A DNA stretch of 64,000 nucleotides, from the NCBI GenBank assembly GCA_049510215.1, contig JBEKZD010000003.1, positions 24,544-88,543 on the forward strand, in the 5' to 3' direction. Of this stretch, positions 2,805 through 41,123 are shown piece by piece (position 1 is the stretch's first letter; each line of letters opens with the position of its first letter). The position numbers were made by a program, and so were the translations under genes. The notes under the pieces were generated by a model. The model worked only from the letters and a program-made list of their open reading frames with translations, did no database searches and was not told where the DNA came from. Source of the DNA: Verrucomicrobiia bacterium (lineage in GTDB: Bacteria > Verrucomicrobiota > Verrucomicrobiia > Palsa-1439).

Positions 2805-3595
2805 AATCGCACCGGTATTCCCTTCTGCCTCAAAAACTGTTTTACCTGCAGCACGGTGTACTCGCCAAAGTGGAAAATCGACGCCGCCAGCACCGCGTCG
2901 GCCTTGCCTTCGCCCAGCACGTCGGCCATGTGTTCCAGAGTTCCCGCGCCGCCGCTGGCAATAACCGGAATCGACACCGCTTCGCTGACCGCCCGCGTCA
3001 ACTCGACGTCGTAGCCGCGCTTTGTCCCATCCGTGTCCATGCTTGTCAACAGGATTTCGCCCGCCCCGAGAGCTTCCACGCGACGCGCCCACTCGATGGC
3101 ATCAAGCCCCGTGGGTTTCCGGCCGCCATGCGTGAATACTTCCCAGCGGGAGGCGCTGGAGTGTTGGAGTGTTGGAGTGTTGGGGTGAATGCGCTTGGCG
3201 TCGATGGCGACCACGATGCACTGACTGCCGAATCGCTCCGCGCCCGCTCGCACCAGGTCCGGATTCTGCACTGCCGCGGTGTTAACGCTGGTCTTGTCAG
3301 CGCCGGCCTTGAGCATCGCACGGACGGCTTCGACGCTGCGAATGCCGCCGCCGACCGTCAGCGGCATGAAACATTCGCTCGCAGTGCGCTCGACCACGTC
3401 GATCATCGTAGCGCGATTCTCGGCGCTGGCCGTGATGTCCAGAAAGACCAATTCATCGGCTCCCTGCCGATCATATTCCTTCGCACACTCAACCGGATCG
3501 CCGGCGTCGCGCAGGTTCAAGAATTTCGTTCCCTTCACCACGCGCCCGCGATCCACATCGAGACATGGAATGATTCGTTTGGCTAACATAGGCAA
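2801..3595 (-). CDS. hisF: imidazole glycerol phosphate synthase, cyclase subunit
   Basis: [20 protein letters not shown]...GGGIRS...VAIDAKR...[20 protein letters not shown]...ASGGAG are canonical HisF motifs. Contains an in-frame octamer tandem repeat at 3157-3187. Confidence 0.9.
3157..3187. repeat. 8-bp tandem repeat (TGGAGTGT x3 plus a degenerate fourth copy) inside the hisF CDS
   Basis: Plus-strand sequence tggagtgt tggagtgt tggagtgt tggggtg. On the minus strand it encodes PNTPTLQHS, lengthening the loop between the AIDAKR and WEVFTHGG segments of HisF. Confidence 0.8.
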
Positions 3596-3676
3596 GAGAA
3601 TACACCAACGCCTTCGGGTTTGTCATCCGCAGCGCGTCCCAGGATTTGGAAGGAAGCTGCCGCGCCGTTTGGGAAT

Positions 3677-3697
3677 CTGCGCTTCATAGAAGCGCAG
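3677..3697. repeat. perfect 9-bp-stem palindrome CTGCGCTTC-ATA-GAAGCGCAG (copy 1 of 2)
   Basis: An identical 21-mer followed by CTACA recurs at 29867-29887. Confidence 0.7.
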
Positions 3698-4010
3698 CTA
3701 CAACAAACTCCAGACCGTCAATGTAGGGGCGCTTCTGTGAAGCGCCATCGACCGTCTAATCACTCGTCGGCCCGGCGTTTCGCTTCTGTCGGTCGCCGCC
3801 GCCTTCTCAGTTCCCTTCGCCGCGACGCTGGCCACGCTCTTGTTGGTCGCGTCTCTCCTCGCCTTTGGGCGGCTGACTGTAGCGTCTGATTTGTTTGGCG
3901 AGGCGGTGACACTCAGCGGGGGCGGTGTTGAGGAGGCGCGGTTCGGGCACGCCGTGCTTGCTCGCGTAGTCGGTCCTGCCCCTGACGATTCTGAGTGAGG
4001 CGGACTGTTG

Positions 4011-4508
4011 TTATTTGCCGCCCAACCGAGTGGGCGGGAGACGTTCTTCGGTCATCTGGCGGACGGTCTGGCCGTAGTGCTGGTGCCGTTCGACGGGGTC
4101 GGCAATATCTTTGCATTTGAGCAGGGCGCGGACGCGGAGGCACAGGTCCTGCACGTCGATGGGCTTGCAAACAAGGTCGTCGGCGCCCGCAGTCATGGAT
4201 CCCTCAATCTCTTCACGCGAAGTGGACCCCGTGATGACAAGGATGGGGATGTGTTCCGTCTTCTTGTTCGTCCGAATCGCCTTGCAGACAGCCACCCCGT
4301 CCGGGGCGGGCATGCGCAGGTCGAGGAGGATCAAATCCGGCTTGTTGGTGATCGCTTGTTGGATGCCGTCGTCGCCAGTGGCCGCTGTGAGGACAGACAT
4401 ACCCTCGGTCGCTAGAACTTTCTTCAGAAAGCCCCGCATCTCTGCGTCGTCCTCTACGACTAGTAGTGTTGGTTCGTTCAAGGGCTGCGACCCCCTTGCC
4501 GATTGCAC
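4011..4508 (-). CDS. response regulator receiver-domain protein (CheY-like, no recognisable output domain)
   Basis: LLVVEDDAEMRGFL...LILLDLRMPAPDGVAVCKAIR...IPILVITG... carries the phospho-acceptor Asp and the conserved Lys of REC domains. No cognate kinase is adjacent. Confidence 0.7.
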   Translation of the reverse strand: MQSARGSQPLNEPTLLVVEDDAEMRGFLKKVLATEGMSVLTAATGDDGIQQAITNKPDLILLDLRMPAPDGVAVCKAIRTNKKTEHIPILVITGSTSREEIEGSMTAGADDLVCKPIDVQDLCLRVRALLKCKDIADPVERHQHYGQTVRQMTEERLPPTRLGGK

Positions 4509-7427: not shown

Positions 7428-7535
7428 GCGCTGGTTAAGAAGTCTATGAAACTTCCCACGTCAGCGTCAATCGCCCGGCGGCGGGCCCGGCGGTCGCGTC
7501 CTACCACGGCGCATCAAATGAGATGTGACAGAGCA

Positions 7536-8817: not shown

Positions 8818-9066
8818 TTAACGAAAATGGCCGCTATGCCAACTGTGGGCCAGTTCGCGCGGAGTCAGGGGTTGTTCCGCACCCGCCAGCAATGCTCGCA
8901 ACGCCTCATAGGCCACTGCATCGATTTCCTCGTCCGTCACCCCCGCCTTCATGGCAACCGCCACCAGATGCTCGTAGCGCCAAGTCGCTCCCTCCACAAT
9001 CGCAATCCTGAGCGCCTTCAACGCGCTGCTCTTTTCGGTGCGCGGACTGGCTTTGAGTTGCTTCAT
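8818..9066 (-). CDS. hypothetical small protein
   Basis: 82-aa ORF in typical high-GC codon usage. No recognisable motif. Confidence 0.3.
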   Translation of the reverse strand: MKQLKASPRTEKSSALKALRIAIVEGATWRYEHLVAVAMKAGVTDEEIDAVAYEALRALLAGAEQPLTPRELAHSWHSGHFR

Positions 9067-9190: not shown

Positions 9191-9754
9191 ATGGAAAGCA
9201 ACTGGTTCAACAAATACTTTCCCTGCCTCCTCACCCTTCTGGCGGCTGCGAGTGTGGGGCTCGCGCCGTCTGCAACGATGCAAGGCCAGCAATCACAGTT
9301 GCTGGTGGACTACGTGCCGCCTTCGTTCGCGCAAACGAATCACATCTCCGCCGTTTCATCGCTGCCCGAGCTCTTCCCCGCCGATTCAACGAATCGCACA
9401 ATCGCCAGCGCCCCCACGCGGCACACCCCGGTGGATCGCTGGGAGGAATTTGAAGCTGAATTTGGCATCAAGAAAACGGAGCCGTCATTCGTGAAGAGCT
9501 CAATCGAATCCACGAAATACAAACTGGACGAGACCGTCTTCGCCGCGAAGGAGTTTGTGGAGAGTTTTCGATACGACGTATATCTGAAAGATTTGATGAC
9601 CAGTTCCAGTTCGACTGCCCCGTTGCGACGGTACTATTCCGATCCGATCCTGGACTCCTTGGAAAACGCGCAGATCAGGTCCGGCGTCGACTGGGATGCG
9701 CACGCCGGCCGTGCCTTTGTGGGCGTCAGGCTGGTGTTGCCGCTCGGAGATTAA
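9191..9754 (+). CDS. hypothetical secreted protein
   Basis: N-terminal signal-peptide-like segment (LLTLLAAASVGLAPSA). Its stop overlaps the convergent GT2 gene stop (TTAA). Confidence 0.4.
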   Translation: MESNWFNKYFPCLLTLLAAASVGLAPSATMQGQQSQLLVDYVPPSFAQTNHISAVSSLPELFPADSTNRTIASAPTRHTPVDRWEEFEAEFGIKKTEPSFVKSSIESTKYKLDETVFAAKEFVESFRYDVYLKDLMTSSSSTAPLRRYYSDPILDSLENAQIRSGVDWDAHAGRAFVGVRLVLPLGD

Positions 9755-10518
9755 TGACTGGTCGTAGAGGGCGACGGAGAAGAGCGCGCGCTTTTCGAAG
9801 GAGCGCGTCGGAACCCGTGCGAAAACGCTAGCAACCACACCATCCATAGCGCCTCGCGCACAATCTTTCCCGACATTTTGGACTGTCCTGCATACCGATC
9901 GACAAACGTAATGGGAGTCTCCGCGACGCGAAAACCCTTCATCCAAGCTTTATAGGTCATTTCGACCTGGAACGCGTAGCCATTGCTCCGCACTTTGTCG
10001 AGTTCGATGGCTTCCAACACTTCCCGACGAAAACACTTGAAACCGCCCGTTGGGTCTGTCACCGGCAATCCCGTTATCAATCGGACATACCAGGCTGCTC
10101 CTTTGCTCAACATCAGGCGCGACAACGGCCAGTTGATCACGCGAATCCCGTTCCAGTAACGCGATCCCAGCACCAGATCCGCCTCTTCGATCTTCTTCAG
10201 AAAATTCGGAATCTCATTCGGATCGTGGGAGAAATCCGCGTCCATCTCCATCAAATAGTCGTAGCCCCGCGTCAGTCCCCATTTGAATCCTGCGATGTAG
10301 GCCGTGCCCAGTCCCAGTTTGCCTGCGCGCCGCAGCAGGTGCAACCGCGGCTGCTTCCGCGACATCTCTTCGACAATGTCCCCCGTGCCGTCGGGCGAAT
10401 TGTCGTCAACAATCAACAAGTCGATGTCAGGCGACTGCTGCAGGGCCATCTCAACAATGCCGTGCATGTTTTCGCTTTCGTTGTACGTCGGAATGATGAC
10501 TAACGTTCGTTTCTCCAT
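9751..10518 (-). CDS. GT2 polyprenyl-phosphate glycosyltransferase (Dpm1/ArnC-like)
   Basis: VIIPTYNESENM...LLIVDDNSPDGT...MDADFSHDP...GGFKCFRREVLE are GT2 DPM1-family motifs (DxD present). Confidence 0.8.
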   Translation of the reverse strand: MEKRTLVIIPTYNESENMHGIVEMALQQSPDIDLLIVDDNSPDGTGDIVEEMSRKQPRLHLLRRAGKLGLGTAYIAGFKWGLTRGYDYLMEMDADFSHDPNEIPNFLKKIEEADLVLGSRYWNGIRVINWPLSRLMLSKGAAWYVRLITGLPVTDPTGGFKCFRREVLEAIELDKVRSNGYAFQVEMTYKAWMKGFRVAETPITFVDRYAGQSKMSGKIVREALWMVWLLAFSHGFRRAPSKSARSSPSPSTTSH

Positions 10519-10551
10519 TTGCCTTTGTTCAGCCTTTCATTGTTGTGTTGG

Positions 10552-12213
10552 CTACGCGAATCGCGGATTCGCCAGCACGATGTAGGCTCCATGATGGAAC
10601 ACGACCGCCCACTTTTCGTTTTGGGTCTGCTGCACCACTTCCCGCACGCCCCGCAGCACGGGTAAGGTATACACCGCGTCGATGCCGACTGGCAACTGCA
10701 TGCGGCGACCGTCGGGGAGCGTTCGTTCCTCCACCCCGTACTCCAAGACGAGGAACTTCGCCTGCTGCAAGCGGCAATCGAACCAGAACAGTTCACGCGG
10801 AATGTGCGCCGGCACGGGCGTGTCGTTGTCCACGCCCTCGTAACGGGCGCAGAACGTCAGCATGCTGCGCCGCCCGCACCGCGCAAGCCAGTAGATCTGC
10901 TTCGGCACAATCACGAAGTCGTCCTTCGTAGTGTGCGCGTTGACGAACGCCATTGCCGCCTCGGCGTCGGCAGCGGACTGCTGCGTCCACATGTCGATTC
11001 GGGTGTGGAAACGTCCCAACGCCCCTGATGCCGACTCCAGACCGAAGCCGGCCAACACGACGACTGCGATTGCCACAGGCAACACGTTGCCCAGCTTCGG
11101 CGCGACGCGTTTGGCCAGTCCCCCCGCCCATGCCAGCACGCCCGCGAAGCCCACCGCCATCAGCGGCAGGAAGATGGTCGCCGGATAGAAGAACAGCGGC
11201 ACGTTGTTGAGCTTCTTGAACACGCCATACATCAGCACCAGCAGCCAGAACGGCATCCACAACCGCAGCCGCCAATCTCGCGTTGGCAGGAACACAAACC
11301 CGATTGTTGCCACCGTCAGCCACCAATCATGTCCCGACCACGGCAACGGTGGCCCTTGCGTCGGCGTCTTGAATCCGAGGTTCCACACGTTCTCCGCGAA
11401 CCGCGCCGCTTCTCCCATCAACGTCGGCTGCGTTTCGTTGCTGGCGACGCTGGTCAACAAGGCGACGTGGGACCGAAGTTGCACCGCGCCGTGGACCGCC
11501 ACATACCACAACACGAATAAGGCTCCGTACGCGCCCGCCGTCGCGCCCGCCACCAACACCCGCACCAACCGCCGCTTCAGCGTCTGTGGGAGCGGCGTTC
11601 CCGCCCCGACCGGATTCACCAGCGCCGCTGTCACCACCACTGCACCGATCAACGGATACGTGAAGTAGTTCGTTGCTGTCGCCAGCGAACACATGACTCC
11701 GGCCCACGTGATGTCGCGTCCCCGCCTCTCCTGCACATAACGGATGAGAAACCCAACTGACGCCAGCGCGAACGTCCCCGCCATCGGATGCGAGCGCACC
11801 CAACGGAAATTGACGTTCGCTTCGCTGTAAACCAGAAACGCCGCGGCGCAAAGGAAGCCAAAATTCTTGTCGCGCAGCCGCGACCCGACCCAAAACAAAA
11901 TCGCCGCCGCCGCCAACGCTGTCACCGCGCCGAGCGCGCGGCCCATGACGATGTCATCGCCAAAGACACGCAGCAGCGCGCCGTTGACCAGCATGTACAA
12001 CGGCGGATACGGATACGGGAAAACGAAGTCGTCGATGATCGGCCCGACGCGCGGCGTGCCGTGAATGAAGGTCCAGCACTTTTCCATCCATTCGCCTTCG
12101 TCGCCGTACCAGTTCGGATTCGTCCGCAGATTCGGCAGAAACAAAAAAGCCCACAGTGCTACCAAAGCGATGGTGACGTTGCGTTCCCAGTTTGTCTCGA
12201 AAGGCAGCTTCAT
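10552..12213 (-). CDS. GT-C fold membrane glycosyltransferase (GT39/PMT_2/ArnT-like)
   Basis: 553 aa with more than 10 predicted transmembrane segments. Loop-1 acidic motif YGDEGEW and hydrophobic architecture typical of the GT39/GT83 dolichyl-/undecaprenyl-phosphate sugar transferases. Confidence 0.7.
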   Translation of the reverse strand: MKLPFETNWERNVTIALVALWAFLFLPNLRTNPNWYGDEGEWMEKCWTFIHGTPRVGPIIDDFVFPYPYPPLYMLVNGALLRVFGDDIVMGRALGAVTALAAAAILFWVGSRLRDKNFGFLCAAAFLVYSEANVNFRWVRSHPMAGTFALASVGFLIRYVQERRGRDITWAGVMCSLATATNYFTYPLIGAVVVTAALVNPVGAGTPLPQTLKRRLVRVLVAGATAGAYGALFVLWYVAVHGAVQLRSHVALLTSVASNETQPTLMGEAARFAENVWNLGFKTPTQGPPLPWSGHDWWLTVATIGFVFLPTRDWRLRLWMPFWLLVLMYGVFKKLNNVPLFFYPATIFLPLMAVGFAGVLAWAGGLAKRVAPKLGNVLPVAIAVVVLAGFGLESASGALGRFHTRIDMWTQQSAADAEAAMAFVNAHTTKDDFVIVPKQIYWLARCGRRSMLTFCARYEGVDNDTPVPAHIPRELFWFDCRLQQAKFLVLEYGVEERTLPDGRRMQLPVGIDAVYTLPVLRGVREVVQQTQNEKWAVVFHHGAYIVLANPRFA

Positions 12214-13838
12214 GGTCTGCTGATGACGTATATTCGCATCGGACCGAAGTTGGTGCTCAATCCACCGAAGTTCACCCGACTGGCGTCAAAACTCGTCCGA
12301 TTGTCATCCACGACGAGCACGAGTGAATTGGTCCCCAACTGACCACCCTGGCCATGCAACATGGCCAAAAAAGGCACATCCAACTGCGCCGGTTCCACCC
12401 GCTGCCAATGATCCATCTGTAGCAGCCGGTTCTCTTTGAAAAGCCTGTCAACGTCCGCGCGTGCAGACACAAATTCCGCCGCCTCCCGCTTAAAACCAAG
12501 CCCCGATCCGTACGTGCCTTGTGCCCCACCATACCGGTTCAAATAGCGATTCGCATCAAGCATGAAAATGACGTTGCCCACCACAAAGATTGCCACCCCC
12601 GCAATCACGATCTTCGCCGGCAACGCGCGCTGGCCAAGCGCCCCAAAAATCAGGAAATGTACCGGGTACAAAATGACGTAGTAAGACAAATACGTCCACA
12701 GCCCGGCCACGAGATATACGCCCAAAGGCACTACAAACCACAGCGCCAAAATCCATGCCCTCTTCGATTCCTCATCCGCCGTCACTTCCCGGCGGAGAAC
12801 GGCCCTCAGAGACTTCGCCACCACCACGCAGAACCACACCAACGCCGCGAGAAACGCCAGCCGTTGCGTCGCCGGCAACCAATCACTCATCGTCAGCGAC
12901 GACTCAAAATACCGGTTCTGTCCCGCGCCCTTGCCGACCCAAATTCGATTCGGGTCAAACTTCTCGCTTGTGCTCAATCCGAACACATCCTCGATCTCGC
13001 CAGCATTCATGATCGCCAACGCATGTTGCCACGCCTCCGTTGGCCGCCGCGGAAACGGGTAACCGCTCTGCGGATTGATCGTCATTCCCGGCGGAAGTTG
13101 CTCCCATTGACGGCTGCTGCGCTCTTCCGACATCCGCTTCCACCCGGCCCAGCCGGTCTTCTGTTGCTCGATCACGTAGGGCAATGCCAACATCACTGCC
13201 GCCGCCACGCCGGCGATCGCCAGCCGCCAGTCAATCTTCGGACGCAACAACAAAAGAATCGCCACGGCCGCCGCCGTCAAAGCAAACCCGCTGTAGTGAA
13301 TCTGAATCACGCACAACGGCAGGCACAACACCCAAAACACCGCTTTCGGTTTCTTCCCCAGGACGAGCGCATGCACTGCCCACATCGTCGCCGTCGCGAA
13401 CACGGGCACGAAATCCTGCGCCCAAATTTTCCGGGAATAAATGACCGCCCACGGCGACGTTGCGAACAATGCCGCTGCCACCAAGCCGGTCAATGGGCCG
13501 TAGTATTTCCGCCCGATCCACCATGTGGCGACAACCGCGGCCAGCCCCAACCCGGCGATCATGCAGCACACCACCGCGACGTTCGACGTGACGAAAAACA
13601 TCGGAATCAACAGCCAGATGAACAGCGGCGGATTCGTCACACCCACGCTCGACATCAAACCCGACGTCGGCAGCTTGCCGCCCCGCACGAACTCCAGCGC
13701 CCGATTCGCCGCAAACGCCTCGTCACCTTTGAACTCCAGCAGATCGAGATGCGAGAACCGCAGCCAGGCACCGGCGGTGACGATGAGAGCCAGAAGAATC
13801 CATTCGCGCGCCGTGATGTTGGCGGGCGTTCGCGCCAT
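12210..13838 (-). CDS. GT-C fold membrane glycosyltransferase (GT39/PMT_2/ArnT-like), paralog
   Basis: Start trimmed to MARTPANITAREW at 13838 (ATGA overlap with the upstream GT2 stop). Loop-1 KGDEA motif and polytopic membrane architecture. Confidence 0.7.
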   Translation of the reverse strand: MARTPANITAREWILLALIVTAGAWLRFSHLDLLEFKGDEAFAANRALEFVRGGKLPTSGLMSSVGVTNPPLFIWLLIPMFFVTSNVAVVCCMIAGLGLAAVVATWWIGRKYYGPLTGLVAAALFATSPWAVIYSRKIWAQDFVPVFATATMWAVHALVLGKKPKAVFWVLCLPLCVIQIHYSGFALTAAAVAILLLLRPKIDWRLAIAGVAAAVMLALPYVIEQQKTGWAGWKRMSEERSSRQWEQLPPGMTINPQSGYPFPRRPTEAWQHALAIMNAGEIEDVFGLSTSEKFDPNRIWVGKGAGQNRYFESSLTMSDWLPATQRLAFLAALVWFCVVVAKSLRAVLRREVTADEESKRAWILALWFVVPLGVYLVAGLWTYLSYYVILYPVHFLIFGALGQRALPAKIVIAGVAIFVVGNVIFMLDANRYLNRYGGAQGTYGSGLGFKREAAEFVSARADVDRLFKENRLLQMDHWQRVEPAQLDVPFLAMLHGQGGQLGTNSLVLVVDDNRTSFDASRVNFGGLSTNFGPMRIYVISRP

Positions 13839-14593
13839 CAAGTCCTCACCTTCAGCGGCCAGCCGATGCGCTGCGCCCGCCGGATTCGGAACAACTCTGC
13901 CCAGATGCGCAGCGCGCGCCGCAAGTTGTACGGGATGCGCGTGTCGGGGTCGTGCACCCATTGCACCGGCAGTTCGGCAACGCGACAGCCTTCGCGCGTC
14001 GCAACCACCAGCATCTCGATGTCGAATATCGCCGTGTTTGATGTGACCTGCGGAAAAACCTTCTGCGCCACCTCGCGTTTCATGCACTTGAAACCGCACT
14101 GCGTGTCATGGAAGCCGCGAACGCAGAGCAATCGCGTGCCGACGCCGAACAGTTTGCCGGCGAGCGCCCGATACCATACTTGTGGCTGCTCGACCTCCGC
14201 GCCGGGAATCGAGCGCGAACCCATCGCCATGTCATAGCCGTCGTGCTCCAGCTTGACCAGGAGCTTGTCCACCTCGCCAATCGGTGTACTCTGGTCGGCG
14301 TCCGTGAACAACACGTAGCGGCCTCGCGCGTCGAGCATCCCCGCTTTCACTGCCCCGCCCTTGCCGCGGTTGGGCTGCAGATCGATCAGCCGCACCATCG
14401 GGTGGCTCTTCGCCAGTTCGCGTGCGACTGCTGCCGTGTCGTCCTTGCTGCCGTCGTTGACAACGATAATCTCGAATCTCAAATTCTTCCCTGACAAATA
14501 AGCAACAATCCCCGGCACCTGTTTCCGCAGCCGCTCCTGCTCGTTATAGGCGGGAATAACGACGGAGAGATAAGGCGCGGAGTCCGTTTCCAT
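13838..14593 (-). CDS. GT2 polyprenyl-phosphate glycosyltransferase (Dpm1-like)
   Basis: LSVVIPAYNEQERL...IIVVNDGSKDDT...FTDADQSTP...CGFKCMKREV are GT2 motifs. Confidence 0.8.
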   Translation of the reverse strand: METDSAPYLSVVIPAYNEQERLRKQVPGIVAYLSGKNLRFEIIVVNDGSKDDTAAVARELAKSHPMVRLIDLQPNRGKGGAVKAGMLDARGRYVLFTDADQSTPIGEVDKLLVKLEHDGYDMAMGSRSIPGAEVEQPQVWYRALAGKLFGVGTRLLCVRGFHDTQCGFKCMKREVAQKVFPQVTSNTAIFDIEMLVVATREGCRVAELPVQWVHDPDTRIPYNLRRALRIWAELFRIRRAQRIGWPLKVRT

Positions 14594-15718
14594 TCAGCTG
14601 GCTTTCTTCAACGCACCGAGTTTGCGCAGCGTGGCCAGCGCTTCGGCCGCGTAATCCTTGTCGAGTTTCTGCTTCCGGATCCATTCAACGTACTCGCGAA
14701 CACTGTCACGCGGCGTTTTGGTCGGTTGCCAGCCGAGCCGTTGCAGTTTGGAAATATCCGACACGCTGTGCCGCGTGTCGCCGACACGGTACTCCCCCGT
14801 GATGCTGGGCTTGAACTCCTTGCCCAACACCTCCGCGACGATCCGCGCAAACTCCAGTACCGTGTAGCCGCGTCCGCCGCCGACGTTGAACACTTCGAAA
14901 TTCGCCTCGTCGCGTTCGAGAATGAGCAAATTGGCGCGGGCGACATCGGAGACGTTCACGTAATCGCGGAGTTGCTGGCCGTCCTCAAACACGCTGGGCG
15001 GCTGGCCTTGGAGCATCTGCAGTGTGAAAATGCGCAGTACGCCGGAGTAGGCGTTGCGAAACGACTGACGCGAACCTTGCACGATCGAGTAGCGCATCGC
15101 GGCGCTGGGAATCCCGTAGTTCCTACCCAGCGCGATCGCCATCAACTCCTGCGAGTATTTGGCTATAGAATACTGGTTCCTCGGATTCGCGTGCGTCTCG
15201 AGCAGCGGCAGCGGCTTGATTGCGCCGCCACACTTTGGACAAACCGGTTCCCACAAACCGTTCGCCAGCCGTTGCGGATCCCGGCCGTCGGGAAACACTT
15301 CACCATTCTTGGCGCATCGGTAGCGGCCTTCGCCATAAACGAACTGCGTGCTGGCAACCACAACTTTGCGCACCGGCAGTTTCTCGGCAACGATCAACTC
15401 GTACAGCAGCGCCGTTCCGACGGAGTTGACGTGGAAAAACTGCGAGAAGTTTGGAAGCAAATCTTGGTACGCCGCAAGATGGAATACCACGTCCACTCCG
15501 TTCAGCGCCTTGTGCCAGTCGTCGCGATTGCGTACGTCGCCGTGCACCCGCTCCACGTGCTGCGAGAGCCACGCGGGCCATTCGCTGGTGGAGGCATGCA
15601 CGGGCGTCGTGAGACTGTCCAACGCGCGCACGTCGTAGCCTGCGCGCAGCAGTTCCTCCGCTGTGTGCGATCCGATGAACCCTGCTCCCCCGGTGATGAG
15701 AGCCAACCCTTTGCTCAT
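14594..15718 (-). CDS. NAD-dependent epimerase/dehydratase (extended SDR) with an inserted CxxC...CPKC zinc ribbon
   Basis: Rossmann fold (ITGGAGFIGSH) and catalytic YxxxK (YSIAKY). An unusual ~40-aa insertion carries RYRCAKNG...CPKCGG. Its stop abuts the GT2 start. Confidence 0.8.
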   Translation of the reverse strand: MSKGLALITGGAGFIGSHTAEELLRAGYDVRALDSLTTPVHASTSEWPAWLSQHVERVHGDVRNRDDWHKALNGVDVVFHLAAYQDLLPNFSQFFHVNSVGTALLYELIVAEKLPVRKVVVASTQFVYGEGRYRCAKNGEVFPDGRDPQRLANGLWEPVCPKCGGAIKPLPLLETHANPRNQYSIAKYSQELMAIALGRNYGIPSAAMRYSIVQGSRQSFRNAYSGVLRIFTLQMLQGQPPSVFEDGQQLRDYVNVSDVARANLLILERDEANFEVFNVGGGRGYTVLEFARIVAEVLGKEFKPSITGEYRVGDTRHSVSDISKLQRLGWQPTKTPRDSVREYVEWIRKQKLDKDYAAEALATLRKLGALKKAS

Positions 15719-15850
15719 GGCGAAATCGTTAAAAGGGTTAAAAGGTCAAGAAGGTTAAAATCGTTAAAACGGGTAAAAGGTGAAGACACGCCAACACGCA
15801 CAATCCACCTGCTAACTGTTTTAACCTTTCTAACGATTTTAACGATTCTC
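15719..15850. repeat. intergenic short-tandem-repeat hairpin (GTTAAAAGG direct copies followed by CCTTTTAAC-type inverted copies)
   Basis: cgttaaaagggttaaaaggtcaagaaggttaaaatcgttaaaacgggtaaaagg ... ctgttttaacctttctaacgattttaacgatt. Confidence 0.7.
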
Positions 15851-16444
15851 CCCTTTCAGCTTTTCGTACAGGTAACCGGTGATGATGTGATCCAGGATCA
15901 TATGAACATCTTCGACAGGACCGTAGCCATCGGATGGAACAATAAACGCCACGTCAGCCAGCTTCGCCAGTTTGCCGCCACCGAAACCGGTCAAGCCGAC
16001 CACGCGAACGCCCATTTGCTTCGCGGCCTCAACGGCGGCGAGGACGTTCGGCGAATTACCGGACGCCGAGATCGCGACAAGCAGGTCGCCAGCCCGCGCC
16101 AGGTTCTTCAGCGGCTCGCTGAAGATGTGGTTGTAGTCAGTGTCGTTGGCCCACGCGGTCATTAGCGAGACGTTATCGGTGAGCGCGATAACGCGGAAAC
16201 GCTTCCGCCCCGACGAGCCTTCCTTGTCGGGGTTGTGGCCCAGCGTGCCTTTGCACAAATCGTTCATCATGTGCGACGCCGTCGCCGCGCTGCCGCCGTT
16301 GCCAATGACAAAAATCTGTTTACCGGCCGTGTGCGCCGCTTCAATGGCTTCCACCGTGCGATCCACTGCATCGAGTGGCAGCCGATCCAAAACCGCTTTC
16401 AGTCCGTCAACGTACTTCCGCGCATATTCCGAGGCTTTTACCAT
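15839..16444 (-). CDS. gmhA: D-sedoheptulose 7-phosphate isomerase
   Basis: SIS domain (IFVIGNGGSAATASHMMNDL...ALTDNVSLMTAWANDTDY...LVAISASGNSPNVL) matching GmhA. Confidence 0.8.
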   Translation of the reverse strand: MVKASEYARKYVDGLKAVLDRLPLDAVDRTVEAIEAAHTAGKQIFVIGNGGSAATASHMMNDLCKGTLGHNPDKEGSSGRKRFRVIALTDNVSLMTAWANDTDYNHIFSEPLKNLARAGDLLVAISASGNSPNVLAAVEAAKQMGVRVVGLTGFGGGKLAKLADVAFIVPSDGYGPVEDVHMILDHIITGYLYEKLKGENR

Positions 16445-16509
16445 AATTTTATCACCACGAAGCTCACGAAGAGCACGAAGTCTTCATGGACTTCGTGTCC
16501 TTCGTGGTT
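16445..16509. repeat. intergenic short-tandem-repeat hairpin (CACGAAG x3, then CTTCGTG x2)
   Basis: caccacgaagctcacgaagagcacgaagtcttcatggacttcgtgtccttcgtggtt. Confidence 0.7.
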
Positions 16510-17490
16510 CTAATACCGTTGCATGTTGAACACAACCCGGCTACCGCCGCGTTCGAGCCGAAACGGCATCTCGCGCAGGTTGGAAAGCGCCTGCCGCACC
16601 GCTTGGCGTTTGTCGCTCGGCACGCAGAGCAGGAAAAATCCGCCACCACCGGCGCCGGAAATTTTGCCGCCGAGCGCGCCCGCTTTCACTGCCCGCTCAT
16701 ATATCTTATCCATTTCGTTGTTGCTGATCGACTGCGCCAGCTTCCGTTTAGCCTCCCACCCCTGATGCAACAGTCGCCCCAACCCTTGGACGTCCCCCGT
16801 CTCAATGATCTGGCGCGCTTCCTGCGCTTGCCGCGCCATCGCGCGCAATACGTCCAACTTCCCGCCGATGTTCGACTTCTGCTCGGAGAGAATCGTGGCG
16901 GCGCTGCGGGTCCTGCCCGTGTAAAACAGCATGAGCATGTTGTCCATGTCCTCAAGAACTGCGCGGGACATCTTCACGGCGTTCACCTTGATGTCGGGGC
17001 CCGGCCCGAACTGAAAGCAGCGCAGGCCGCCGTACGCTGCGATGTACTGGTCTTGCACGCCGATTGGCTTCTTCAGAATCTCGATTTCGATCTCACACGC
17101 CTCGCGCGCCAATTGCTCGGTCGTCGGGGTTTCGTCCACGAGGTGGTACAAGGCGTTGAGAACGCCGACCGTCACGCTGCTGGACGAACCCAGGCCTGAA
17201 CCCTCGGCGGGAATGTCGGAAAGGAAGGAAATCTCCACTGCTTTCGTCACGCCGACCTTGCGCATCGCCTCGCGCACGAGTTCGTGCTCCAGTTGGTCCA
17301 CGGAATCAACGATCTCCTTCTTCGAGTAACTGACGTAAATCTTGTCGTCGAATCGCTCCTTGACAATGCAGTAAACAAACTTGTCGATCGCCGAGCTGAC
17401 GACGCAGCCGCCGTGCTTTTCAAAGAAATCGCGGAAATCCGTGCCACCGCCGGCAAACGACACGCGCAAGGGTGTCTGGGTGATGATCAT
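16510..17490 (-). CDS. hddA: GHMP kinase, D-glycero-alpha-D-manno-heptose 7-phosphate kinase-like
   Basis: MIITQTPLRVSFAGGGTDF... and the GHMP ATP-binding motif PAEGSGLGSSSSVTV. Overall similarity to HddA. Start trimmed to MIITQ (17490). Confidence 0.65.
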   Translation of the reverse strand: MIITQTPLRVSFAGGGTDFRDFFEKHGGCVVSSAIDKFVYCIVKERFDDKIYVSYSKKEIVDSVDQLEHELVREAMRKVGVTKAVEISFLSDIPAEGSGLGSSSSVTVGVLNALYHLVDETPTTEQLAREACEIEIEILKKPIGVQDQYIAAYGGLRCFQFGPGPDIKVNAVKMSRAVLEDMDNMLMLFYTGRTRSAATILSEQKSNIGGKLDVLRAMARQAQEARQIIETGDVQGLGRLLHQGWEAKRKLAQSISNNEMDKIYERAVKAGALGGKISGAGGGGFFLLCVPSDKRQAVRQALSNLREMPFRLERGGSRVVFNMQRY

Positions 17491-17581
17491 GGCCGGAATG
17501 GAGTACTGGGGAATTGGAGCACTGGAGTACAGGGACAAACTTCTTTCCCACATCTCCACTCTCCATCACTCCACAACTCCA
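17491..17581. repeat. intergenic short-tandem-repeat hairpin (GGAGTACTGG-type direct copies, then CCATCACTCC inverted copies)
   Basis: ggaatggagtactggggaattggagcactggagtacaggg ... ctccactctccatcactccacaactccatcactccatcactcc. The related motif TGGAGT also occurs in the hisF repeat and at 19160-19200. Confidence 0.7.
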
Positions 17582-18298
17582 TCACTCCATCACTCCTTCC
17601 TCGTAGTCTTTCTGCGCCTTGGCTAATCGCTCGGGCGTGCCGACATCCTGCACGTATGCCTCTGGTTTCATCGCGTACAACGGTTTCCTCTCCGCCAGCA
17701 GTTTGGGAAACAAATCCTTCCCGAAGTCATAAAACTGACCCGCGGAAATCTCGTTCAACACTTGCGGCTCGACCACAAAAATACCAGCACTAATGAGGTT
17801 TGTCGAAACCTGTTTTGGATCGGGCTTTTCGATGAACCGCAAGACTCGCCCCGCCGCATCCGTCTCCACTACCCCACCCGTCCACGGCTCAGGCGACTCG
17901 AATAAGGCGATCGTCGCCAATGCTTTCCGCGCGCGGTGAAACTCCAGCAGCGGCGCGAACCGGATGCGCACGAGATTGTCCCCGTAAAACACGATGAACG
18001 GGCCATCGCGCAGCAAATGCTCCATCTTTTTTACCGCGCCGGCCGTGCCCAGCAGCTTCGGTTCAAGCGAGTAGGTGATCGCTACACCAAACTTGCTCCC
18101 GTCCCCGAAATAGCTCGTGATCTTTTCTGGCATGTAGTGGAGGTTGATGATGAGCTCACTAATCCCCTGCTCGCGAAACAACTCGATGTGGTGCTGCAAC
18201 ACCGGCTTGCCGCCGATCGGCACCATCACTTTGGGCACATCCAGCCCCAGCGACCGCAACCGCGTCCCCAACCCCGCCGCGAGGATAAAGGCTTTCAT
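17582..18298 (-). CDS. hddC: D-glycero-alpha-D-manno-heptose 1-phosphate guanylyltransferase-like nucleotidyltransferase
   Basis: MKAFILAAGLGTRLRSLGLDVPKVMVPIGGKPVL...YFGDGSKFGV...LGTAGAV is the NTP-transferase fold, sized like HddC (238 aa). Confidence 0.7.
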   Translation of the reverse strand: MKAFILAAGLGTRLRSLGLDVPKVMVPIGGKPVLQHHIELFREQGISELIINLHYMPEKITSYFGDGSKFGVAITYSLEPKLLGTAGAVKKMEHLLRDGPFIVFYGDNLVRIRFAPLLEFHRARKALATIALFESPEPWTGGVVETDAAGRVLRFIEKPDPKQVSTNLISAGIFVVEPQVLNEISAGQFYDFGKDLFPKLLAERKPLYAMKPEAYVQDVGTPERLAKAQKDYEEGVME

Positions 18299-18470
18299 GG
18301 AGAGGACGGCAATGAGGTTAAAAAGGTTGAAGAAGTTAAAGAAGTTGAAGAAGTAAAAAGCGTTAGACAGATTGAGAACGTTGAAACTCTGAAGTGAGCG
18401 TGTGGCCGGCGGTCTTTAACCCTTTCAACCACTTTAACCGTTTTAACCTCTTTAACGGTTTCGCCGATCT
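18299..18470. repeat. intergenic short-tandem-repeat hairpin (GTTAAAGAAG/GTTGAAGAAG direct copies, then CTTTAACC inverted copies)
   Basis: ggttaaaaaggttgaagaagttaaagaagttgaagaagtaaaaag ... ctttaaccctttcaaccactttaaccgttttaacctctttaacggtt. Confidence 0.7.
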
Positions 18471-19073
18471 TCATTGCCGCTCCCTCAAATACCGGGACAA
18501 AACCGCCCACGCCTTTTGCAGCGCCTTCGCGCGATGGCTGATTCGGTTCTTCACGTCAGGCGACAGTTCTCCGAACGTCTTTACCTGCCCGTCGGCAATG
18601 AAGAGCGGGTCGTAACCGAAACCGCCTCCGCCGCGTTCCTCCTCGATGATCGTGCCATTGCAGATGCCCTCGACCGTCTCGACCAACCCGTTTTCGTCCG
18701 CAATCGCGGCGACGCAACGAAACCGCGCGGCGCGTTTTTCCATCGCTACGCCTTTCAACAATCCCAACAACTTCTTGTTGTTCTCGTGATAGCTTCCGTC
18801 GTCGCCTGCGAACCGCGCCGAGCGCACACCCGGTTCGCCGTTGAGCGCGTCCACTTCGAGTCCCGTGTCGTCGGCAAGCGTCAACATCCGGGCCGCCTTC
18901 GCCGTCTCGACCGCCTTCTTGACGGCGTTGTCCCGAATCGTCGCGCCGTCCTCGTCGATTTGCGGCAATCCCTTGACGTCCGCCGCCGAGACGACTTCCA
19001 ACTTCAAGTCAGCCAGAAGCGCCTGAATCTCCTTCAACTTGTCCTTGTTCCGCGTCGCTACCAAAACTTGCAT
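18471..19073 (-). CDS. rdgB: non-canonical purine NTP pyrophosphatase (dITP/XTP pyrophosphatase)
   Basis: MQVLVATRNKDKLKEI...ADDTGLEVDALNGEPGVRSARFAG...GFGYDPLF are Ham1/RdgB motifs. Confidence 0.85.
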   Translation of the reverse strand: MQVLVATRNKDKLKEIQALLADLKLEVVSAADVKGLPQIDEDGATIRDNAVKKAVETAKAARMLTLADDTGLEVDALNGEPGVRSARFAGDDGSYHENNKKLLGLLKGVAMEKRAARFRCVAAIADENGLVETVEGICNGTIIEEERGGGGFGYDPLFIADGQVKTFGELSPDVKNRISHRAKALQKAWAVLSRYLRERQ

Positions 19074-19321
19074 GGGCGGGGATTATAGTTGCGCCTGTGA
19101 AAAAATGAAGGATAGATTGCGAGCTGCGACAAATGGGGCGCTGGGGCATTGCAGTGATGGAGTACTGGATTACGCCGCCATCGCTCCACTGCTCAGGCGT
19201 CATCGTATTCTCAATGTTGGGTAGTGTCCTGATTTGCAGTTTGGAGGGACGCGCTCCGTCGCGTCCGTTCGCGAAATGCGGCCACGACAGAGCGTGGCCC
19301 TCCAGATTAGGACACTGCCCA

Positions 19322-20512
19322 ATGTTGAACCAGCTTTACATTCTCTACCTCGTGTCGTTGTTGATGGACATGAGCGTGGCAGGGGTGTCGTTTGCGATCA
19401 GCCGACGCGCCGCCGAGCTCGGCGCCAGCGCGTCGGAACTCGGCTGGCTGGCGGCGGTGTGGATCGGCGTGTACGGCGCGCTGGTGCTCCTGACAGGCCA
19501 CCTGTCGGACCGGGTAGGCCGTCGCAAGCTGGCCGTCATCGGTTGTCTCATTGCGTCGAGCATGACGTTGATTTGTTCGTTCACGACGCGCGTGCCGTTG
19601 CTGCTCTGGTTCAGCGCGGGAATCGGCGCCGGCATCGCGTGTTTCTGGCCGTCGATCATCGCGTGGCTCGGCGAAGGATTGAGCGGCGCGCAATTGGCGA
19701 AACGGTTGACCACTTTCGGCGTGGCATGGAACGCCGGTCTCCTCTTGGGTTTCGGCTGCACCGGAGTCATTTTCAAGCACTGGCCGCAGCCGGCATTCTA
19801 TGCGCCGGCAGGCGTGATCTTGCTCATTGCCGCGCTGTTGTTCATGCATGTTGAAGGTAGGGCTCGACCGCCGGGCGAGCTGAACGACTCGGACGGCCCG
19901 GCGGTCCGTCCCTACCAAAAACCTCACGTGCCGGCCGGTCGTGGATTCCGCAAAACGGCCTGGCTGGCGCTGTTCGCGACGAACTTCGCGCTCAACGGCA
20001 CAGCCGCGCTGTTCCCGCAACTGGCGACGCATCTCGGCATCAGCGCTGACGTGCACGGTGCATTGTTGGCAGCGGGACGCGGTGCCGCCCTGGCGGCATT
20101 TGTCGCACTGCAACTGCTGACGTTCTGGCGAACGCGGCTGTGGCCATTGTGGGTGGCGCAGGCGTGTTGCGCAACCAGCATCGTGTGGATCGGCCTGGCT
20201 AACGCGACGTGGATGTTCGCAACGGCGTGGGTGATCGGCGGCGTGGTATCAGGTTACGCGTATCAGGCGAGCATCTACTTCACGCTCGAAGAGATGAGTG
20301 AAAAAGGCAAAGGCAGCGGCTTCCACGAAGCGATGCTCGGCAGCGGGATGTTTTTCGGGCCGATGTTGGCGGGCTGGGTCGGCAACAATCACGGGTTGCG
20401 CACCCCGTACTTGTTCTGCGCCGCGGCGCTGCTGGCGCTCATCGTGGCTCAGATGATTCTTGTCTTTTGGAGACGCACCGCAGCCGCGAACGCCATCCTC
20501 CGCCACGACTGA
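19322..20512 (+). CDS. MFS transporter
   Basis: Twelve-TM-like hydrophobic pattern with the MFS signature GHLSDRVGRRK. Start trimmed to MLNQLYILY (19322). Contains an in-frame MITE-like insertion at 19856-19916. Confidence 0.7.
   Translation: MLNQLYILYLVSLLMDMSVAGVSFAISRRAAELGASASELGWLAAVWIGVYGALVLLTGHLSDRVGRRKLAVIGCLIASSMTLICSFTTRVPLLLWFSAGIGAGIACFWPSIIAWLGEGLSGAQLAKRLTTFGVAWNAGLLLGFGCTGVIFKHWPQPAFYAPAGVILLIAALLFMHVEGRARPPGELNDSDGPAVRPYQKPHVPAGRGFRKTAWLALFATNFALNGTAALFPQLATHLGISADVHGALLAAGRGAALAAFVALQLLTFWRTRLWPLWVAQACCATSIVWIGLANATWMFATAWVIGGVVSGYAYQASIYFTLEEMSEKGKGSGFHEAMLGSGMFFGPMLAGWVGNNHGLRTPYLFCAAALLALIVAQMILVFWRRTAAANAILRHD
19856..19916. mobile_element. MITE-like palindromic element, family 2 (GGTAGGG...CGGACGGCCCGGCGGTCCGTCCCTACC), inside the MFS CDS
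   Basis: Terminal inverted repeats GGTAGGG/CCCTACC plus internal hairpin GGACGG...CCGTCC. Near-identical copies at 41051-41123 and 31312-31378. Here it encodes a loop (...[12 protein letters not shown]...). Confidence 0.65.
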
Positions 20513-31311: not shown

Positions 31312-31378
31312 GGTAGGGTGCGCTCGCTGAGCGTGCCGCTCCGGAGGTTCGGGCAGCCCGGCGGTCTGCCCCTACCAA
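31312..31378. mobile_element. MITE-like element, family 2 copy (GGGGTAGGG...CCCCTACC)
   Basis: ggggtagggtgcgctcgctgagcgtgccgctccggaggttcgggcagcccggcggtctgcccctacc. Confidence 0.6.
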
Positions 31379-41050: not shown

Positions 41051-41123
41051 GGTAGGGCGCGACCGCCGGGCGCGCCGCTTCTGTTGTTCTCGGTTTCGGA
41101 CGGCCCGGCGGTCCGTCCCTACC
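41051..41123. mobile_element. MITE-like element, family 2 copy
   Basis: ggtagggcgcgaccgccgggcgcgccgcttctgttgttctcggtttcggacggcccggcggtccgtccctacc. Confidence 0.65.

Follow-up and report, generated by a model that had tools for sequence, protein, structure and literature searches.

A 64,000-nucleotide stretch of DNA from a Verrucomicrobiia bacterium (GTDB Palsa-1439; GenBank assembly GCA_049510215.1, contig JBEKZD010000003.1), here called the window, carries an operon of eight co-oriented genes on its minus strand (positions 9751-18298; Table 1). In order of transcription, beginning with the gene at 17582-18298, these encode a sugar-1-phosphate nucleotidyltransferase (NTP-transferase), a GHMP kinase, a SIS-domain isomerase, a short-chain dehydrogenase/reductase (SDR), a glycosyltransferase of family 2 (GT2b), two polytopic proteins of the GT-C type (GT-Cb and GT-Ca) and, last, a second family 2 enzyme (GT2a). 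We consider it about an even bet, judging from sequence, that this operon specifies a glycosylation system that works in the periplasm, depends on a lipid carrier and has a heptose as its dedicated sugar. This reading is built on the family-level identities of the genes, the fold and motifs of the GT-C proteins, the conservation of the operon among relatives, and the recurrence elsewhere of the same sugar-activation cassette beside GT2 and GT-C genes. An earlier interpretation made from the letters alone (the sequence-only reading) had assigned these genes, and its identities and positions were borne out at family level by Pfam and NCBIfam. It had also counted nine genes on one strand; the single strand holds, but only eight genes lie between 9751 and 18298, and the ninth co-oriented gene, rdgB/Ham1, falls outside that range.

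From these observations we infer a nucleotide, an SDR reaction, a heptose-taking GT2, a lipid-linked intermediate and a set of acceptors that would combine as follows. In the cytoplasm, the GmhA-like isomerase would convert sedoheptulose-7-phosphate to the 7-phosphate of D-glycero-D-manno-heptose, the HddA-like kinase would make the alpha-1,7-bisphosphate, and a GmhB phosphatase encoded elsewhere would take off the 7-phosphate. The NTP-transferase, acting as pyrophosphorylase, would then yield a nucleoside diphosphate (NDP)-heptose, probably GDP-heptose, part or all of which would be epimerised by the GalE-like SDR with its three-cysteine insertion. One or both GT2 enzymes would load the heptose (and possibly a second sugar, e.g., mannose) onto polyprenyl phosphate at the inner membrane face; after flipping, the two GT-C transferases would pass the sugar to acceptors in the periplasm or outer envelope. 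Most relatives would also employ a third, TMEM260-like GT-C protein with tetratricopeptide repeats (TPR), and the presence of a TPR domain hints that some of the acceptors are proteins.

The resemblance to heptose enzymes is closest for the kinase and the isomerase. The best NCBIfam match of the kinase is HddA (179.6 bits, E 1e-52, full length), its best PDB sequences are all heptokinases (3k85, 5e-50; WcbL 4usk, 1e-44; 4n3o), and catalytic R13 and D163 of WcbL have counterparts in it (the R of PLRVSF and the first D of QDQY, respectively). For the isomerase, models of phosphoheptose isomerase take the first four places in NCBIfam (E 1e-34 to 6e-28), and its twelve best PDB sequences are GmhA (5ltz/2x3y, ~1e-26). 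We propose from these similarities that the former is a 1-kinase for the 7-phosphate of D-glycero-D-manno-heptose and the latter a sedoheptulose-7-phosphate isomerase. The best NCBIfam match of the NTP-transferase is the mycobacterial mannose-1-phosphate guanylyltransferase (175 bits; cut-off 440), and its PDB sequence matches run from a UGPase-like protein (8x7s, 1e-43) through GDP-mannose pyrophosphorylases (1e-34) to HddC (4e-21). Genomic context argues for an HddC-like role for this predicted pyrophosphorylase: homologues 30-50% identical to it adjoin HddA-like kinases in many other phyla and are often fused to a GmhB-type HAD domain. No equivalog cut-off is reached by any of the three enzymes (kinase, 600 bits required; isomerase, 120 and 114 bits against 276 and 209 for GmhA; NTP-transferase, 102 bits against 300 for HddC), and their membership is therefore at the level of the family rather than the orthologue. 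Accordingly, where the sequence-only reading had named a gmhA-hddA-hddC set, the likeness to the GmhA and HddA families stands, the best matches of both proteins being heptose enzymes, and the HddC assignment is not borne out by score. Its remark that GmhB is not encoded in the window was upheld, HAD motif I occurring in no open reading frame (ORF) of the 64 kb; its description of the GDP-D-glycero-manno-heptose pathway as complete is not supported within the window, and a HAD gene is likewise found in none of the 29 related operons described below.

One alternative is that these three enzymes activate a sugar other than heptose (a hexose or some other ketose-derived sugar phosphate), which is then linked to lipid. 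The sub-cut-off scores and the missing GmhB would fit this, as would two features of the isomerase: the GmhA metal site H/E/Q/H (zinc ligands H64/E68/Q175/H183 in Burkholderia pseudomallei) is altered, conservatively, to H/D/E/H (E to D, Q to E), and the protein carries a 9-residue insertion relative to GmhA. We nonetheless regard the idea as improbable, given that, whichever library is searched, the kinase and isomerase match heptose enzymes best, aligning over the full length and keeping the catalytic residues; that natural kinase-SIS fusions exist; and that a GmhB-type HAD phosphatase, in many cases fused to the NTP-transferase, is present in most homologous cassettes and marks the subfamily as a 1,7-bisphosphate pathway.

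The SDR would be the enzyme that modifies the heptose. Its closest solved relatives are 4-epimerases of UDP-hexose, UDP-N-acetylhexosamine or UDP-glucuronic acid (4zrm, 1e-41; WbpP, WbgU and MoeE5), with no dehydratase on top, and it is GalE-like in its GGAGFIGSH Rossmann motif and invariant S123, Y183 and K187 triad. An epimerised heptose, one of two products that had been suggested from the sequence, is therefore plausible, whereas the other, a 6-deoxy-heptose, is not indicated; from its relatives, the enzyme more likely epimerises than dehydrates. The cysteine-bearing insertion that had been noticed in this protein is real: some 35-45 residues (~131-170) are missing from every solved homologue. 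It is not, however, a zinc ribbon of the form CxxC...CPKC, as there are three invariant cysteines (C135 and C160-P-x-C163, with N, D or H at position 138) rather than two CxxC knuckles. It is possible that these three cysteines plus another ligand bind a metal. SDR homologues outside the clade that are 47-51% identical keep C135, P143, R146, W156 and C160-P-x-C163 invariant, as well as S123, Y183 and K187. Such insertion-bearing SDRs are encoded directly upstream of an NTP-transferase and kinase in three loci (L124, L112 and L101) and nearby in a fourth (L102), all four being ordinary Wzy/GT4/Bac_transf polysaccharide clusters that also have SIS and HAD genes. Because insertion-bearing SDRs adjoin the pyrophosphorylase and kinase in unrelated lineages, we assign the SDR to the heptose cassette, and its substrate would most likely be an NDP-heptose rather than an unrelated UDP-hexose. 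For the same reason, we rejected as a primary model a two-branch scheme in which the SDR is a UDP-hexose epimerase supplying GT2b while the heptose cassette supplies GT2a.

Both GT2 enzymes proved to be of the Dpm1/ArnC-like type that had been read from the sequence, with the PF00535 domain and matches to the Pyrococcus furiosus dolichyl-phosphate mannose synthase (PfDPMS), GtrB and ArnC; they are 31% identical to each other. GT2b matches PfDPMS (1e-18, residues 9-209), GtrB sll0501 (1e-15) and ArnC (1e-13) among PDB sequences, has the DAD motif together with homology that runs from the GT-A domain into the C-terminal acceptor-loop region, and reaches no NCBIfam equivalog cut-off. GT2a matches PfDPMS (5mlz) at 1.2e-36 over residues 4-230. 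The PfDPMS residues that contact guanine, the metal-diphosphate and mannose have been defined in its structure (PMC5526996). At equivalent positions GT2a reads PTYNE, VDDNSPD, GLG, DADFSH and GSRY, and it keeps the counterparts of PfDPMS Y10, E12, D39, G68-L69, the DAD motif, H94 and R117, as a DPMS-type enzyme should. PfDPMS Q93 is replaced by Ser in GT2a and K178 by Ala. Both replacements are also found in human DPM1.

In its sequence, then, GT2a looks like an ordinary GDP-mannose-using DPM1/Ppm1, and this makes a serious contender of the view that the operon is an ordinary polyprenyl-phosphate mannose/hexose system, with heptose genes that are merely cotranscribed and feed Leloir heptosyltransferases (for lipopolysaccharide [LPS] core or capsule) elsewhere. 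GT2a would then be a Ppm1/DPM1 making polyprenyl-phosphate mannose from GDP-mannose supplied by the pyrophosphorylase, GT2b would make a polyprenyl-phosphate hexose from a UDP-sugar, and the GT-C proteins would be mannosyl- or hexosyltransferases. For GT2a, sequence cannot separate GDP-mannose from GDP-D-glycero-D-manno-heptose, which differ by the added C7. Serious as it is, we think this explanation unlikely, on grounds that are weighed below.

The GT-C proteins are the least familiar part of the operon. Their PMT_2 scores (Table 1) lie below the gathering score of 26.1 bits, and profiles of the two families found nothing among PDB sequences at an E value of 1 or less; the fold was judged from AlphaFold2 models made with homologue alignments and compared with the PDB by Foldseek. 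The GT-Ca model (predicted local distance difference test [pLDDT] 70, predicted template modelling score [pTM] 0.75) has STT3, ArnT 5f15, AglB, PglB and Pmt4 as its top matches, and the GT-Cb model (pLDDT 73, pTM 0.76) has ArnT 5ezm/5f15, AglB, AftB, ALG12 and STT3. All matches at E<=1e-3 (25 for GT-Ca and 12 for GT-Cb) are GT-C proteins (STT3/PglB/AglB, ArnT, Pmt4, AftB, ALG9/12 and Emb), at TM-scores of 0.44-0.55 and with models of moderate confidence. The models thus predict a polytopic GT-C fold for both proteins. In GT-Ca the first periplasmic loop, after the first transmembrane segment (TM1), contains the invariant motif NPNWYGDEGEWM, D38-E39 being constant in 15 homologues; GT-Cb has D39-E40 at the same place, after TM1 in the first periplasmic loop, invariant in 16 homologues. 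A comparison by hhalign (E 3.5e-5) relates the two proteins remotely to each other through the N-terminal 250 residues and brings their DE motifs into register. What had been read as GT39/ArnT-like transferases with a loop-1 DE motif therefore keeps its fold and its motif, but not its place in the GT39/ArnT family, although some database homologues are labelled "glycosyltransferase family 39" at source. Within a set of 5.8 billion proteins the two families amount to ~200-240 sequence clusters and do not extend beyond Verrucomicrobia: GT-Ca has 195 homologues, every organism-named one being from Verrucomicrobia, and the similarly restricted GT-Cb family has 239 matches. The named homologues are all from uncultured Verrucomicrobiia, and among those of GT-Cb one (NCBI ABSH21_02565) has the identical sequence (100%).

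When a single genome was scanned for each species, 38 GT-Ca loci were recovered, all in metagenome-assembled genomes of Verrucomicrobiota, and were annotated by tblastn with the window proteins; 29 distinct loci cover the region. The order rdgB, NTP-transferase, kinase, isomerase, SDR, GT2b, GT-Cb, GT-Ca, GT2a is kept in 26 of the 29, and in the relatives examined that have gene calls the operon genes overlap or lie a few bases apart. Across these loci the block is intact while the flanking genes differ, with the GT-C proteins down to 47-50% identity and the cytoplasmic enzymes at 64-85%. The only transferases in the operon are the two DPMS/GtrB-type GT2 enzymes and the GT-C proteins; there is no Leloir glycosyltransferase. 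Directly after GT2a, 22 of the related loci encode the third GT-C protein (~1000 residues; a TMEM260-like/DUF2723 N-terminal domain followed by TPR), for example at 12422-15670 in L003 and 12471-15434 in L004. The 64-kb window has no such protein, nor paralogues of the cluster genes, anywhere else; a 997-residue ORF at 23417-26410 was considered as a candidate and rejected, being leucyl-tRNA synthetase.

Three of the related loci (L003, L022 and L031) form one subclade, which is why we attribute their lack of kinase and isomerase genes to a single loss or relocation. GCA_033577295.1 is one of the genomes without these heptose genes. Of 124 NTP-transferase positions that are otherwise conserved, 7 have switched residues in this subclade, and five of the 7 fall in the sugar-binding half; the SDR, GT2b, GT2a and RdgB together have 6 of 561 (Fisher p = 0.004). 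These switches fit a change of substrate by the putative pyrophosphorylase where the heptose genes are absent, and we count them in favour of the heptose reading.

The association is not limited to these Verrucomicrobiota. Exhaustive searching by HMMER with the kinase as query returned 15,205 relatives, the nearest cluster representatives being only 55% identical, and natural fusions occur among the closest of them: kinase-SIS, kinase-SIS-GAF and kinase::GT2 (P0286). P0286, a Rosetta-stone protein, joins an HddA-like kinase to a DPMS/ArnC-like GT2 domain that can be aligned from end to end with GT2b and GT2a; the solved proteins that this domain matches best are chondroitin synthase (N-terminal region only) and ArnC. 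At its locus (L043), an SDR, two aminotransferases, an SDR and an NTP-transferase::HAD fusion are followed by the kinase::GT2 gene and an overlapping PMT_2 GT-C gene. Eight further kinase loci were then looked up, picked solely for long contigs and diversity, and three have a DPMS-like GT2 and a GT-C protein at the cassette. In the first (L048), which is archaeal with AglB nearby, a GT22/PMT_2-like GT-C gene begins at the SIS stop codon and a 226-residue DPMS-like GT2 is encoded 3 kb off; in the second (L049), from Woesearchaeota, the cassette stands with a GT2 and YfhO; in the third (L050), an NTP-transferase::HAD fusion, kinase and SIS accompany a divergent unit running from a GT2 to a PMT_2 GT-C. 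The other five (L044-L047 and L051) are classic Leloir clusters, one of which serves the LPS core and has GT9 heptosyltransferases. Scanning metagenomes brought in another 80 loci, of which 41 are 8 kb or longer and ~10 have a DPMS-like GT2 near the cassette; Pfam confirmed the partners in the following. In L096/L098, GT2, NTP-transferase, kinase, SIS and GT2 genes meet a convergent PMT_2 GT-C gene scoring above the gathering score; L108 has GtrA, a GtrB-like GT2 and a 13-transmembrane protein of 934 residues; L114 has a PMT_2 and TPR protein by the cassette; and in L075 HAD, kinase, SIS and GT2 genes precede one for a flippase-like LPG_synthase_TM protein. The cassette closest to that of the window (L128; kinase 56% and NTP-transferase 50% identical) is flanked by PMT_2 and TMEM260-like GT-C genes, and no DPMS-like GT2 was detected in its 15.5 kb. 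Since it recurs in unrelated bacteria and in archaea, the arrangement is thus a recurrent minority one rather than the quirk of a single clade, and this pairing of cassette, GT2 and GT-C suggests a lipid-linked heptose donor that has not been described.

Several further features of these outside loci may be mentioned in their own right. Three proteins of 727-774 residues (P0244, P0245 and P0247) fuse an HddA-like kinase, a GmhA-like SIS domain and a GAF domain, which hints that in some lineages small molecules regulate the activation of heptose. The cassette GT2 enzymes of L043, L049, L050 and L075 form a subfamily of their own (30-44% mutual identity) with an ERKGY-type motif and, in L043 and L049, SD[ST]GG at the DxD position; their identity to the two GT2 enzymes of the window, GT2a and GT2b, is a mere 22-29%, and they are equally distant from both. 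By the cassette and its GT2 there also recur FAD amine-oxidase-like proteins of ~435 residues (L043, 3175-4491; L049, 1010-2317 and 7056-8360; L075, 2985-4286) and LPG_synthase_TM proteins resembling the MprF flippase domain (L048, 15101-16045; L075, 4289-5166). Both are candidate extra components, for sugar modification and flipping, respectively, that are absent from the Verrucomicrobial operon.

A number of observations count against a heptose-dedicated system. GT2a holds the donor-site residues of a GDP-mannose DPMS, with nothing to signal an altered specificity, and only 1 of its 118 compared positions is switched between lineages with and without the heptose genes. The NTP-transferase resembles the pyrophosphorylases of GDP-mannose and UDP-glucose more closely than it does HddC of proteobacteria, and it shares with the kinase and isomerase a score below the equivalog cut-offs. 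GmhB is missing from 29 of 29 related operons, whereas most cassettes outside the clade carry it, often fused to the NTP-transferase. The subclade of L003, L022 and L031 does without kinase and isomerase while keeping the pyrophosphorylase, SDR, both GT2 and the GT-C genes. GT-Ca and GT-Cb, with their sub-gathering PMT_2 scores and no PDB sequence match, are not demonstrable members of GT39 or GT83. Elsewhere, most window-like kinase cassettes belong to ordinary clusters of the Leloir type, for polysaccharide or LPS core, so that a tie to GT-C enzymes is not general among heptose cassettes. Finally, the support is from genomic context throughout, and lipid-phosphate heptose is a prediction from genes.

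Much of this would suit a mannose/hexose system: the match of GT2a to PfDPMS with its guanine-, metal- and mannose-contacting residues kept, the mannose-1-phosphate guanylyltransferase as best NCBIfam match of the pyrophosphorylase, the survival of the remaining genes without kinase and isomerase, and the Leloir transferases that most similar cassettes serve. To these may be added that human TMEM260-type GT-C enzymes use dolichyl-phosphate mannose (PMC10214176). Such a system does not readily explain why the heptose genes stand between rdgB and the GT2 and GT-C genes in 26 of 29 loci, translationally coupled in relatives, with no Leloir heptosyltransferase in the operon. The kinase::GT2 fusion and the repeated meeting of cassette, GT2 and GT-C in unrelated lineages are likewise hard to explain if the modules are independent, and the insertion-bearing SDR encoded beside GT2b is elsewhere a member of the heptose cassette.

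Adjacency without function, in which separate transcription units are kept together by shared ancestry, was also considered. All 38 GT-Ca loci come from one clade of Verrucomicrobiota, and in the window the four upstream junctions, from rdgB through to the SDR, are 65-172 nucleotides (nt) long (172 nt between rdgB and the NTP-transferase), each holding a strong hairpin that could separate transcripts. In relatives, however, the equivalent junctions are overlaps or gaps of 0-10 nt, and for this reason we take the hairpin spacers to be lineage-specific insertions. None of the four hairpins is followed by a U-tract, and terminators and promoters scanned for inside the operon were not above shuffled expectation in number. 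With the block intact amid varying flanks, and the association recurring outside the clade, we consider this explanation very improbable. The hairpin arms are made of short periodic units of ~7-9 nt (e.g., CACGAAG x3 against CTTCGTG x3, or GGTTAAA-type against TTTAACC-type units) and could be mRNA processing or stability elements or repetitive extragenic palindromic (REP)-like repeats. The downstream junctions are tight. Overlaps of the ATGA type had been claimed more generally for the operon; this is true of the GT-Cb/GT-Ca junction only. The GT2b stop and GT-Cb start overlap by 1 nt (TGATG), the SDR and GT2b genes abut with no gap (TGAATG), and GT-Ca and GT2a are 33 nt apart. The kinase ORF extends to a GTG at 17559, but the likeliest start is Met24 (17490), as in all homologues.

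Table 1. Genes of the operon, the adjoining rdgB/Ham1 gene and intergenic hairpins, in window positions (MFE, minimum free energy)
Feature	Position	Strand	Details
rdgB/Ham1 (XTP/dITP diphosphatase)	18471-19073	-	PF01725 E 3.7e-64; TIGR00042 173.5 bits (cut-off 145)
NTP_transferase, sugar-1-phosphate nucleotidyltransferase	17582-18298	-	238 aa; PF00483 E 6.5e-47
HddA-type GHMP kinase	16510-17490	-	326 aa from Met24; GHMP_kinases_N and GHMP_kinases_C
GmhA-type SIS isomerase	15839-16444	-	201 aa; SIS_2 E 1.9e-18
GalE-like extended SDR, three-Cys insertion	14594-15718	-	PF01370 E 5e-44
GT2b, DPMS/GtrB/ArnC-type	13838-14593	-	251 aa; PF00535 E 1.5e-30
GT-Cb, polytopic, predicted GT-C fold	12210-13838	-	542 aa; PMT_2 16.7 bits, sub-gathering
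GT-Ca, polytopic, predicted GT-C fold	10552-12213	-	553 aa; PMT_2 21.5 bits, sub-gathering
GT2a, DPM1/Ppm1-type, last operon gene	9751-10518	-	255 aa; PF00535 E 4e-29
Intergenic hairpin, isomerase/SDR	15719-15838	-	MFE -33.1 kcal/mol, z -3.7
Other hairpins	18310-18455, 17491-17581, 16445-16509	-	listed -34.4 (z -3.4), -34.0 (z -3.2), -32.6 (z -7.7)

In the window the operon is surrounded by housekeeping genes. Downstream of it lie trpE, hisF, two genes of the CNNM/CorC kind and one for a SurA-like peptidyl-prolyl isomerase; on the upstream side are rdgB/Ham1, a major facilitator superfamily (MFS) transporter gene, glgA and leuS. The transcription unit is closed by a conserved convergent gene (9191-9754, plus strand) whose stop codon overlaps that of GT2a; its 187-residue product has no Pfam match and is conserved in 11 related loci. 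Another protein without a Pfam match, of 82 residues (8818-9066, minus strand), is encoded ahead of the SurA-like gene, and 26 loci conserve it. In nearly every related locus rdgB/Ham1 stands directly upstream of the NTP-transferase gene, whose start it overlaps by 4-8 nt in L001 (rdgB at 3571-4164) and L004 (3555-4157), and this suggests cotranslation with the sugar-nucleotide pathway; we know of no functional link between the two. The window also contains a REP-like element, GGTAGGGCNCGACCGCCGGGC, with 6 matches at four sites (7485-7505, 19856-19916, 31356-31376 and 41051-41123) against a chance expectation of 0.01. Two of the four sites are inverted pairs, and the one at 19856-19916 falls near residue 242 of the ORF predicted to encode the MFS transporter (19133-20512), where it looks like an in-frame insertion unless the ORF is mis-delimited.

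Several known systems share parts of this design. With the actinobacterial Ppm1/PMT and eukaryotic DPM1-POMT/TMTC/TMEM260 systems the operon shares a DPM1-type GT2 (GT2a) and GT-C partners with a loop-1 Asp-Glu motif, and its relatives add the TMEM260-like TPR protein after GT2a. It differs from them in its heptose-activation genes (minus GmhB), NDP-sugar epimerase and second GT2, in GT-C proteins without sequence similarity to solved PMT, ArnT or STT3, and in a sugar that may be a heptose. The ArnC/ArnT system, by which lipid A is modified with 4-amino-4-deoxy-L-arabinose carried on undecaprenyl phosphate, and the related GtrA/GtrB/GtrC and CsbB/YfhO systems follow the same logic, with a nucleotide-sugar pathway, a GT2 that loads undecaprenyl phosphate and a periplasmic GT-C enzyme in one operon, and ArnT (5f15) is among the best fold matches of both operon GT-C models; the operon, however, has another sugar pathway and two GT2/GT-C pairs, and no flippase of the ArnE/F or GtrA kind is encoded in the 64-kb window. 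The Pgf operon of Streptococcus mutans encodes a GT2 (PgfS), a 4-epimerase (PgfE) and two membrane transferases (PgfM1 and PgfM2), deals in UDP-hexoses and UDP-N-acetylhexosamines, and has no heptose genes. It is like the present operon in combining a GT2, an SDR resembling a 4-epimerase and two polytopic transferases. NCBIfam PgfS is among the matches of both GT2 enzymes at E values of 1e-11 to 1e-18, far below its cut-off, and this likeness is one of family only.

The isomerase and kinase are family-level homologues of their counterparts in the GDP-D-glycero-alpha-D-manno-heptose pathway (GmhA, HddA/WcbL, GmhB and HddC), which serves the Aneurinibacillus S-layer and the capsules or O-antigens of Campylobacter, Burkholderia and Yersinia. 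In those systems the consumers are Leloir transferases acting on glycans linked to undecaprenyl diphosphate, whereas the operon has DPMS-type GT2 and GT-C enzymes only; it also lacks GmhB, and its SDR is of the GalE-like, three-Cys kind rather than a DmhA-type 4,6-dehydratase. What is new relative to the known scheme is the attached sugar pathway, the two GT2/GT-C pairs, the two clade-specific GT-C families and the three-Cys SDR subfamily.

The sequence-only reading held that a lipid-linked heptose donor had not been described before, and our search is compatible with this: a full-text search of the literature for polyprenyl-, undecaprenyl- or dolichyl-phosphate heptose, whose coverage leaves out most subscription-journal papers, found no paper, and searches on manno-heptose with GT-C and on heptose with dolichol and archaea returned irrelevant co-occurrences only. 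To our knowledge, the characterised lipid-monophosphate donors of GT-C enzymes carry mannose, glucose, 4-amino-4-deoxy-L-arabinose, arabinofuranose, galactosamine or N-acetylgalactosamine, N-acetylglucosamine or galacturonic acid, and none carries heptose. We tentatively suggest, as a possibility that we would not put at even odds, that polyprenyl-phosphate heptose in bacteria and dolichyl-phosphate heptose in archaea form a fairly widespread undescribed donor, made out of an NDP-heptose by DPMS/GtrB-like GT2 enzymes and used by the mutually unrelated PMT_2-like, YfhO, GT22-like and TMEM260-like GT-C proteins as well as by the two Verrucomicrobia-specific families. The operon would then be its most compact signature, and the SDR would represent a new subfamily of NDP-heptose epimerases.

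Should the heptose reading fail, the locus would be a tidy case of DPM1-type mannosylation in a Verrucomicrobium of soil or peat that is uncultured. If it is true, heptose would be a new sugar on the short list of lipid-monophosphate donors, and there would be a route for it to periplasmic, S-layer and N-glycan targets that does without a Leloir heptosyltransferase, which could help to account for the heptoses found in archaeal glycans. For the Verrucomicrobia, it would give a function to two GT-C families that are theirs alone and to a distinctive subfamily of SDRs.

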